Source: Candidatus Wolframiiraptor sinensis (lineage in GTDB: Archaea > Thermoproteota > Nitrososphaeria_A > Caldarchaeales > Wolframiiraptoraceae). Taken from it: a stretch of DNA of 62,006 nt. The stretch is taken from positions 1-62,006 of the forward strand of contig JALNKA010000004.1 in NCBI GenBank assembly GCA_023261815.1, written 5' to 3'. Shown here piece after piece: positions 61,155-62,006 of this stretch; position 1 is the first letter of the stretch, and each line of letters opens with the position of its first letter. A model generated the notes under the pieces. That model saw only the letters and a list, made by a program, of their open reading frames with translations. It ran no database searches and was not told the origin of the DNA. A program made the translations under genes and the position numbers.

Positions 61155-61436
61155 CCTCGGCGCCTCGAGCGCTTACGCGCCGAAAATATGCATTTTTGTT
61201 TGAAGTTGAGCTTGGAAAGTGTTTCAACGTGAAATTTCTGAGGACCCCACTCCGGGAAGATCGATGGATCTCTCAAATAACCCCTGGGAATGAAAGAATA
61301 ACACATGTTCAGAATCATGAATCCCCTAAACTTCTCAAGCGCCATCCTCCACAGGCATCCACCATCAGCTCTTGCCAGGGCGCCCTTCCCCAGCAAGGCA
61401 GATACACGCGCCCTAAAATCATTTTAAACGGAATAG

Positions 61437-61572
61437 AGGGAAAAAGAGGGTGGTGTCGGGGGAGGGGACATTTGGACAGCCCTTCGCCCGCCATTGCATA
61501 TTTCTCCACTCCCTTGCGGAGCCATATTTTAGGAACCACGGGCCTCATCAGGGCTTTAGTCCTGTCCCTCCG
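61437..61572 (-). ncRNA. Putative bridge/seek-type dual-guide RNA overlapping the transposase 3' end (copy C)
   Basis: GGGACA/TGTCCC stem, AGCCCT-GAT-GA / GA-AGGGCT K-turn-like junction, slots TTCCTAAAAT and AGAAATATGCA, apical GCTCC/GGAGT hairpin. Confidence 0.7.
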
Positions 61573-62006
61573 CCCGCGTCGGCGCCATCACTGTAAGTCC
61601 TTAGAATACTCAGTAGCCTCCTCAGAACCTCCCTCTGATGCCTCATCCTCGGCTTAAGAATCCTCTTCTTAACCAATATAGCGGCCGTCAATGAGGTTAA
61701 GTATCCTCGAGCATGACGGCTGTAACGCCTTACATATTTCTCTCCGCTCTCCTCCTCATACTTTCTCTTATCATCTTTTGTCGGCTTATACAATCCTAGA
61801 AACCTCCTGGCTTTATGATATGATGGCACATTATATGGCCACTTCAGGTAGATTAGTAGCCCGGCCAGCGCCGATAGCGCGTTGATGTTATTATCGTTCA
61901 GTTCCAGCTCCCTGGCGATATCCGCGAATCTCAGGATCTTCTCCACAGCATTCTCGACTATCTCCCCGCGAATAATCATCAATTTCTCCTCACAATCCCT
62001 GATCTC
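61548..62006 (-). CDS. IS110-family transposase/recombinase, C-terminal part (5' end outside the window)
   Basis: ARRFLGL..P...ESG...SRHARGYL resembles the IS110 Tnp-domain 'GL.P...SG...GN..R..L' pattern that holds the catalytic Ser; remnant copy at 23.9 kb. Confidence 0.7.
   Translation of the reverse strand, partial: EIRDCEEKLMIIRGEIVENAVEKILRFADIARELELNDNNINALSALAGLLIYLKWPYNVPSYHKARRFLGLYKPTKDDKRKYEEESGEKYVRRYSRHARGYLTSLTAAILVKKRILKPRMRHQREVLRRLLSILRTYSDGADAGGGTGLKP

Follow-up and report, generated by a model that had tools for sequence, protein, structure and literature searches.

What stands at the right-hand edge of the window, i.e., the whole stretch of 62,006 nucleotides that was analysed (contig C33 of a 33-contig, 1.18-Mb assembly), where a reading frame that runs off the contig ends inside a structured RNA? 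The sequence-only reading had proposed an IS110-like, probably thermostable recombinase with a two-slot programmable RNA. The minus strand of 61440-62006 (copy A) is the right-hand part of a small mobile element of a hot-spring archaeon. Its reading frame (61548-62006, minus) holds the last 152 codons of the gene of a ~300-aa protein of IS110/TasR fold, is open at the contig end and closes with the TGA at 61550-61548, which is, as previously stated, the first TGA of CCCTGATGA; most other copies stop with a TAA 8 nt upstream. The same 1.18-Mb genome contains 9 further matches to this fragment and 17 further matches to the RNA region, and the other genomic copies are 64-76% identical to the protein fragment. 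Many copies lie at contig ends, which is what would be expected from a repeat that breaks assemblies. Complete elements measure 1358-1685 bp, and the full-length homologue P0001 (304 aa) is encoded on contig G000:C12. It must be added that the genome holds a full-length paralogue just 32% identical to P0001 (L117, G000:C17:28831-29556), where the RNA model finds no match. The answer given here, to which an even chance is assigned, is an archaeal insertion element of 1.4-1.7 kb that finds its own site with its own RNA.

The RNA gene (~135 nt) lies at 61440-61585 of the minus strand, where the covariance model R1 scores 144.1 bits (E 2.6e-37); its 5' part is inside the coding sequence and its 3' end is the T-tract 61441-61445. 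The three-copy scaffold described from the letters was recovered: AAGCCCTGATGAGRCCYG occurs at 23866, 50412 and 61539, always on the minus strand, with 0.04 expected and none of 100 shuffles containing three. The RNA of copy A folds at -60.8 kcal/mol (z -3.35) and helices a to d form unaided. In the alignment of 16 close copies, which begins ~35 nt ahead of the stop and runs to the T-tract, the helices are: (i) helix a, in which GGAGGGGCA, within the last codons, pairs with UGCCCCUCC; (ii) helix b, GGAU/GUCC; (iii) helix c, AGCCCU/AGGGCU; (iv) helix d, 5 bp; (v) helix e, 4 bp with a loop of 5-6 nt. The slots vary between copies while the stem changes keep the pairing (GCCCG/CGGGC, ACCUG/CGGGU), as had been noticed.

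In this close set 94.8% of the cells are paired, vs. 44-54% with the partners slid. With 72 sequences the value is 94.0% vs. 35-55%, none of 500 shuffles is as high and all 28 pairs show compensatory changes on both sides; these pair counts lean towards the structure of the model, the alignment being fitted to it. At E <= 1 the model gives 79 matches in 96 sources, directly 3' of the gene and on its strand; at E <= 0.01 there are 72 matches in 69 sources, i.e., 71 on the same strand and one antisense. The RNA is found behind the genes of subfamilies that are merely 40-50% identical in protein. Rfam (61100-62006, E <= 10) returned one meaningless antisense match (Pab91, E 7.1). Contigs of run X16, an RNA library, cover 61356-62006 at a depth of 21.5; being contigs, they carry no information on transcription, strand or ends, and they may derive from other copies or from DNA.

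Between helices c and d, the 5' strand (61545-61555, minus) consists of AGCCCU, a 3-nt bulge GAU and GA, i.e., the 5' half of a kink-turn-like or box-C-like CUGAUGA; its 3' partner, GA followed by AGGGCU, is at 61478-61485 (minus). The 16 close copies show no or almost no variation in UGAUGA and in the 3' GA, which stand next to a stem of 5-6 bp. The GAU bulge with GA opposite GA would form a kink-turn-like motif, not a textbook one in view of an extra purine. As to box C/D-like features, there is no CUGA, one extra purine follows GA and distant subfamilies have no 3' GA. In these subfamilies the basal motif is replaced by a plain 3-nt bulge and the apical hairpin is longer, with GCGA...UUGAAG. 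In L013, L016, L055 and others, this apical hairpin keeps GGCGAGCC...GGCUUGAAGC with tandem GA, which could be a kink-turn placed differently than in the subfamily of the window. Two other readings of the RNA were rejected: a box C/D sRNA, no D or D' box being present, and a hammerhead (CUGAUGAG...CGAA), because the flanking GCCC and GGGC form a stem with one another, which closes a two-way junction.

The strands of the internal loop have ~17 nt each, with hypervariable middles; each is laid out as 3-4 fixed nt, a guide of 9-11 nt and 4 fixed nt. In copy A, guide 1 is in the 5' strand (61522-61538, minus) and guide 2 in the other strand (61491-61508, minus). After removal of duplicates and mis-parsed apical stems, the 72 rows were reduced to 54 unique loci, and the guides were compared with the 400 nt behind the RNA and with up to 700 nt before the gene. 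On the right flank, in reverse complement, matches of at least 9 nt were found with the own guides in 28 of 52 loci, vs. 94 of 2756 comparisons (3.4%) with the guides of other loci. On the left flank, in sense, the values are 6/32 (own) and 48/1696 (others). The opposite polarities give 2/52 vs. 81/2756 on the right and 0/32 vs. 56/1696 on the left. The 24 of 52 loci with no 9-nt match on the right may be accounted for by decay, short contigs or mismatches.

When the flank is extended by the last 12 nt of the model, 30 of the 54 loci have a match. Its register is regular: in 23 of the 30 its start is set back from the loop strand's 3' end by exactly 4 nt, it is preceded by TT in 20 and it opens with AA or TA in 24. 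The guide used is guide 1 in 14 cases and guide 2 in 16. Both flanks fit in L038, L030, L013, L020 and L036 as well as in two copies of the window, A and B; guide 1 is on the left and guide 2 on the right in L038, L030, L020 and copies A and B, and the reverse holds for L013 and L036. Wherever both flanks are visible, each is matched by a different guide. From the register of the matches and the polarity of the flanks, the target site is therefore read as N7-9-TT|AA-N7-9, and on each strand the 3' half is read by one guide. The core is largely palindromic and both orientations occur. The elements sit exactly at the core, with 3-6 letters common to both junctions, and the flank polarity is that which the accessible text of PMC11208160 reports for the target loop of IS621. 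What had been announced as a two-slot programmable RNA with one loop, overlapping the end of the coding sequence and addressing its own site, is borne out.

Two side observations concern the sites and the guides. The insertion sites inspected lie 17-55 nt upstream of gene starts (window 50157-50196; L030 394-420; L151 341-382) and their A/T-rich centres resemble archaeal TATA boxes; the elements may prefer promoters. L034 and L008/L040 share guide 2 (GAGAAGCUU) and differ in guide 1, as if the guides changed one at a time.

For copy A, two matches to slot 2 had been pointed out, at 61184-61192 (9 contiguous nt) and at 61311-61321 (8/11), and both exist. The first is the real flank, since contigs of related strains pass 61196 into the DNA across the element; the second was rejected as a right end, being inside inserted DNA. 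The right half of the present target is thus 61184-61196 (minus), with the right junction within 61193-61197 and AAAAT common to both junctions. The left flank is on another contig (G000:C4, ~341-352) and reads TCCTAAAAT, i.e., guide 1; 9 of 10 letters agree with the left flank that had been predicted. Within guide 1, 61526-61534 (UCCUAAAAU) has the sense of this flank and would therefore pair with its bottom strand. On C4, ...CCTAAAA is followed by a left end of the L036/L038 type until the contig ends, ~75 nt before the gene start. A genome-wide search with the guides (one mismatch) or with the whole predicted site (five mismatches) did not find the left junction; it was located through the neighbouring letters in the contigs of related strains.

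These contigs come from DNA runs of three studies (X3, X4 and X9). They track the window to 61196 and go on with 30 further letters, the reverse complement of which is contig C4, minus strand, from 371 to 342; X3 and X9 have loose ends past 61196, and record 22 of X4 continues for 494 further letters. As they join 61196 to C4 DNA, related strains carry an uninterrupted 17-bp site, in which TCCTAAAAT (sense of guide 1) overlaps TGCATATTT (complement of guide 2) by one T. The site is ~40-55 nt upstream of the gene of V-ATPase subunit F.

Behind the T-tract of copy A comes the original right-end tail (61420-61439, minus), where the similarity to other copies stops. The next 223 bp (61197-61419, minus) lie inside the element and are a piece of a host gene with a reading frame: over 211 nt they are 73% identical to the gene at G000:C18:16675-16882, of which they represent a paralogue, with its promoter region and ~60 initial codons. 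This segment is missing at that place in related strains. The homology to the C18 gene begins exactly at ATTTTAGG (61412-61419), which matches guide 1 over 8 nt and does so in the usual register. ATTTTAGG thus probably marks an older right junction, and the 223-bp flank was probably carried along from an earlier insertion site.

At the left end of copy A (L151, G000:C4 ~240-300, minus) there is a short remnant that resembles the start and the end of an RNA unit (GGGCAGGATAA... GTGAAAGCCC), and the right end of L037 contains a second RNA tail. Such remnants at the edge of elements suggest leftovers of an older copy.

Copy B (50197-50766, minus) is a non-autonomous derivative of 570 bp, with a left end, an RNA (50312-50458) and a right end and no protein gene. 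Its left flank (50767-50775) has the sense of its own guide 1 and its right flank agrees with guide 2 in 7 of 10 positions. Its empty site is seen in a contig of run X16, which joins 50196 to 50767 with 3 common letters, at the guide 1 match. Copy D (23768-23912, minus; 82.8 bits) is a decayed solo RNA unit, whose 3' arm, called degenerate in the sequence-only reading, is indeed lost, and for which no flank match was found. A related strain, that of run X4, has a further copy at 53580, absent from the window; in the X4 contig, 53580 is linked through 17 other letters to the tail of an RNA unit (from 61442 on).

The outermost sequences of the elements are not conserved, even when the left end is otherwise common: the unrelated outer part amounts to 8 nt (L038), 57 nt (copy B) or ~230 nt (L036). 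The claim that a variable donor loop is missing is upheld, with one same-strand match of the model per locus and, in 0 of 4 complete elements, an internal match to the own ends. The common left end contains a conserved small ORF on the opposite strand (L038 168-458 (-); L151 3-167 (+)) ending with ...IIVIDRERAERVAEER; this ORF is intact in some copies, shortened in others and belongs to no Pfam family. L003 (1-668), L034 (1-343) and L035 (~990-1246) have a very G+C-rich and hairpin-rich segment immediately 5' of the gene instead of the usual left end.

The label «IS110-like recombinase» is not supported for the protein in that form. No Pfam or NCBIfam model is over its cut-off for the fragment or P0001. 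Among the 30 family members of alignment A1, PF01548 matches none at its cut-off and 3 at E <= 1, NF033542 matches 8 below threshold (E <= 1), and PF02371 matches none, nor the fragment or P0001. For the remote homologues P0104-P0124 the best value is PF01548 at E 0.0055, below the cut-off. Searches of the PDB sequences with phmmer and the A1 profile gave just keratin, FANCI and a designed bundle, and no IS110 chain. The comparison with 24 canonical archaeal IS110 proteins (hhalign) gave a non-significant probability of 0.06, the sole local alignment pairing the «YLGLYKP» stretch of the family with the «YAGLVPS» stretch of IS110. In the ESM Atlas, the nearest named clusters are of IS110 type and carry PF02371/PF01548 (score 0.94).

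D9, D46, D97, D100, E132 and S216 are invariant in A1 (n=30); in P0106, a remote homologue, Asn takes the place of S216. Both A1 and the canonical IS110 alignment have the motif K-[TS]-D-x-x-D-[AS] without exception. The AF2 model of the family protein (pLDDT 90.9, pTM 0.86) has an N-terminal domain of mixed alpha/beta type, followed by two long helices (120-147 and 153-177) and a C-terminal domain that is helical throughout. With Foldseek against the PDB (E <= 0.001), just six chains are retrieved, from TasR (9mty, B and A), IS621 (8wt9/8wt6) and ISCro4 (9t56); they span the whole length with TM 0.53-0.59. The best one is TasR with tigRNA (9mty_B, E 1.5e-6, TM 0.57-0.59), to which there is no match at the sequence level.

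The canonical IS110 model shows a beta-hairpin (245-250 and 253-259) with the conserved serines S246 and S250, just after the «YAGLVPS» stretch. In the AF2 models and alignments, the family has no counterpart of this hairpin: a helix (231-241) and coil without conserved Ser are found, and the stretch is variable, even partly deleted in some subfamilies. According to the accessible text of PMC11213020, a beta sheet forms the catalytic serine site of IS110 and is absent from Nop5. As models and alignments have it, the family protein is of IS110/TasR architecture but without the defining serine feature of IS110. Recombination is therefore a proposed activity, the best fold match being the nuclease TasR and IS110 membership being absent. 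As for «thermostable», its basis is just that the runs and the related MAGs come from hot springs.

In the insertion-element reading, the element would work as follows. It encodes one protein of ~300 aa with a presumed RuvC-like DEDD-type domain, a coiled coil and a helical Nop/Tnp-like domain, and an RNA that would be rod-shaped, with three basal helices, the kink-turn-like motif, a helix, a large internal loop and an apical hairpin; the predicted geometry of the loop is that of the target-binding loop of IS621. A protein dimer would hold one RNA and open the site of 17-20 bp. The RuvC-like acidic site would break and rejoin the DNA at the core without the IS110 serine, and a circular or excised copy would thereby be inserted. 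Excision, too, would be driven by flank recognition, as has been shown for IS1111. The accessible text of PMC11187229 (the seekRNA paper) states that circle formation by IS1111 needs target-derived flanks, so that flank reading by the single loop could serve excision. The absence of a second, end-reading loop would explain why the ends vary and pick up flanking DNA. There are two possibilities: the core may be all that the enzyme needs in the donor, or a donor reaction does not take place at all and the protein is a homing nuclease. A need for the core alone would explain the flank capture and the remnants of older copies.

Besides the loci with no 9-nt match on the right and the lean of the pair counts, further points weigh against the insertion-element reading: (i) the IS110 serine hairpin is missing and the best fold match is a nuclease; (ii) a recombinase would have to tolerate unconserved ends and the lack of a donor-recognising sequence (0/4); (iii) presence and absence between strains fit homing equally. 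The second branch is that the serine-less protein does no more than cut the uninterrupted site under RNA guidance, as TasR does, and that host recombination copies the element from the occupied allele into the break. In our estimate this is rather unlikely. The element in the middle of its own target would protect the carrier, like homing endonuclease genes. In favour of this reading, TasR is the closest fold, there is no serine hairpin, no donor guide and no conservation of the ends; the guides of every lineage fit their own single site, and occupied and empty alleles coexist in related strains. However, many lineages occupy different sites and are in every case exactly at the core, so that new sites must have been entered precisely and repeatedly without homology. 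In addition, copy A seems to have taken along 223 bp of older flank when it moved, and the N-terminal domain carries the IS110-type K-x-D-x-x-D motif.

It could also be that the element is a true IS110/IS1111 member, the donor-binding part and the catalytic serine of which were missed (a second RNA elsewhere, or Ser216 as nucleophile). The fold match to IS621 and ISCro4, the sub-threshold matches (NF033542, PF01548) and the Atlas clusters agree with this, as do the place of the RNA behind the gene, as in IS1111 (PMC11208160, in its accessible text), and left ends of 270-630 nt, with room for a further, hidden RNA. It is nevertheless very improbable: no model is over its cut-off, neither hhalign nor the PDB profile search finds IS110, the hairpin is absent, Ser216 is Asn in P0106, and there is neither a second model match nor a match to the element ends. 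Least probable of all is a TIGR-Tas-like repressor whose RNP binds neighbouring promoters, the flank matches reflecting regulation and not insertion: stem-loop tigRNAs share the two-spacer hairpin and dead TasR represses transcription (10.64898/2026.09.09.750476, as far as its accessible text goes), and in the cases inspected a gene starts 17-55 nt downstream of the site, but the half-sites are split by the element and contiguous just in strains without it, the acidic residues are invariant and there is one unit, not an array.

The comparison with known systems places the family as follows. With IS110/IS1111 (IS621, ISCro4, ISEc11) it shares guides that match the left flank in sense and the right flank in reverse complement around a common core. 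It differs by the absence of Pfam/NCBIfam membership and of the serine beta-hairpin; by an RNA with one loop, not a target loop and a donor loop, whereas IS621 reads its ends with the second; by a core that is A/T-rich and mostly palindromic (TT|AA, not CT) and used in both orientations (14 vs. 16); by variable ends and a kink-turn-like motif in the RNA; and by its restriction to one archaeal order among 401 sampled genomes. With TIGR-Tas it shares, as far as the fold model shows, a protein made of RuvC, coiled coil and helical Nop-type domain without serine, TasR being the best fold match, and, as far as described in the accessible parts of PMC12045711 and 10.64898/2026.09.09.750476, a hairpin RNA with two spacers of 9-10 nt that read opposite strands over ~18 bp, with UG, the box D of those RNAs, at the 3' side of each. 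The accessible parts of both sources describe arrays in phages and CPR bacteria and not single units in archaeal elements. The family differs accordingly: it has a single unit per locus, resides in an archaeal chromosome, sits in a mobile element and targets the insertion site of that element; the 5' side of its guides is UGGU or GUG and not the CCA box C described there, and its basal stem is much longer, reaching into the coding sequence. The family is thus neither a proper IS110 member nor a TIGR array, because there is no serine hairpin and one RNA loop instead of two.

As regards archaeal box C/D sRNPs (Nop5, L7Ae, fibrillarin), the three-domain plan is shared with Nop5 (PMC11213020, accessible text), two guides are in one RNA bound by a dimer (which for the family would be a presumed one), and UGAUGA with GA could form a kink-turn, the site of L7Ae. 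On the contrary, DNA flanks and not rRNA are targeted, the RuvC-like acidic residues are kept, the D-box CUGA is missing, and guide polarity and box positions differ. Like TnpB, IscB and homing endonuclease genes, the family is a selfish element with an RNA-guided or site-specific enzyme that recognises the element's own empty site; proteins and RNAs are unrelated to theirs, and the family has two short guides for opposite strands and no adjacent motif. In short, it behaves as the target half of a bridge RNA system would, and in build it resembles a single stem-loop tigRNA unit paired with a TasR-like protein.

A word-indexed search gave 69 relatives of the protein, all «hypothetical protein» or unnamed and none with a Pfam domain; the named ones are from Nitrososphaerota or Bathyarchaeia MAGs. 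An exhaustive protein search gave 63 representatives at E <= 0.001. Matches occur in 24 of the 401 genomes sampled from the phylum, all 24 in three families of one order, and related MAG records are named Caldarchaeales and Candidatus Geocrenenecus. The family explains many contig breaks and «hypothetical proteins» in MAGs of Caldarchaeales type. No published description was found in the literature searched, and supplementary lists of IS110, Nop or Tas proteins could include the family. PMC11213020, in its accessible text, traces Nop5 back to an ancestor like IS110 and says that none of the extant archaeal clades in its data fits; its HMM-based searches, as they appear in that text, would not have found this family.

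The family allows a concrete test of whether RNA-guided insertion requires the IS110 serine, or whether a mobile element can be driven by a TasR-like nuclease. If the mechanism holds, it would be the most compact RNA-addressed DNA-insertion unit so far in the superfamily (a ~300-aa protein and a ~135-nt RNA, from thermophiles), and the target rules would be readable from genomes, since the natural targets of dozens of lineages are known. It would also place an archaeal member, one that possibly depends on L7Ae, between IS110, TIGR-Tas and box C/D RNPs, with a bearing on the proposed origin of RNA-guided RNA modification. A bolder view, which we regard as unlikely, takes the family as a living intermediate among three RNA-guided worlds, i.e., a serine-less, single-loop, dual-guide archaeal DNA-insertion system, the kink-turn of which recruits L7Ae. 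If true, the family would resemble the archaeal IS110-like ancestor proposed for the Nop5 box C/D RNPs, and RNA-guided DNA insertion would be achieved by RuvC-type chemistry alone, with an 18-bp address made of two 9-nt words and no donor guide.
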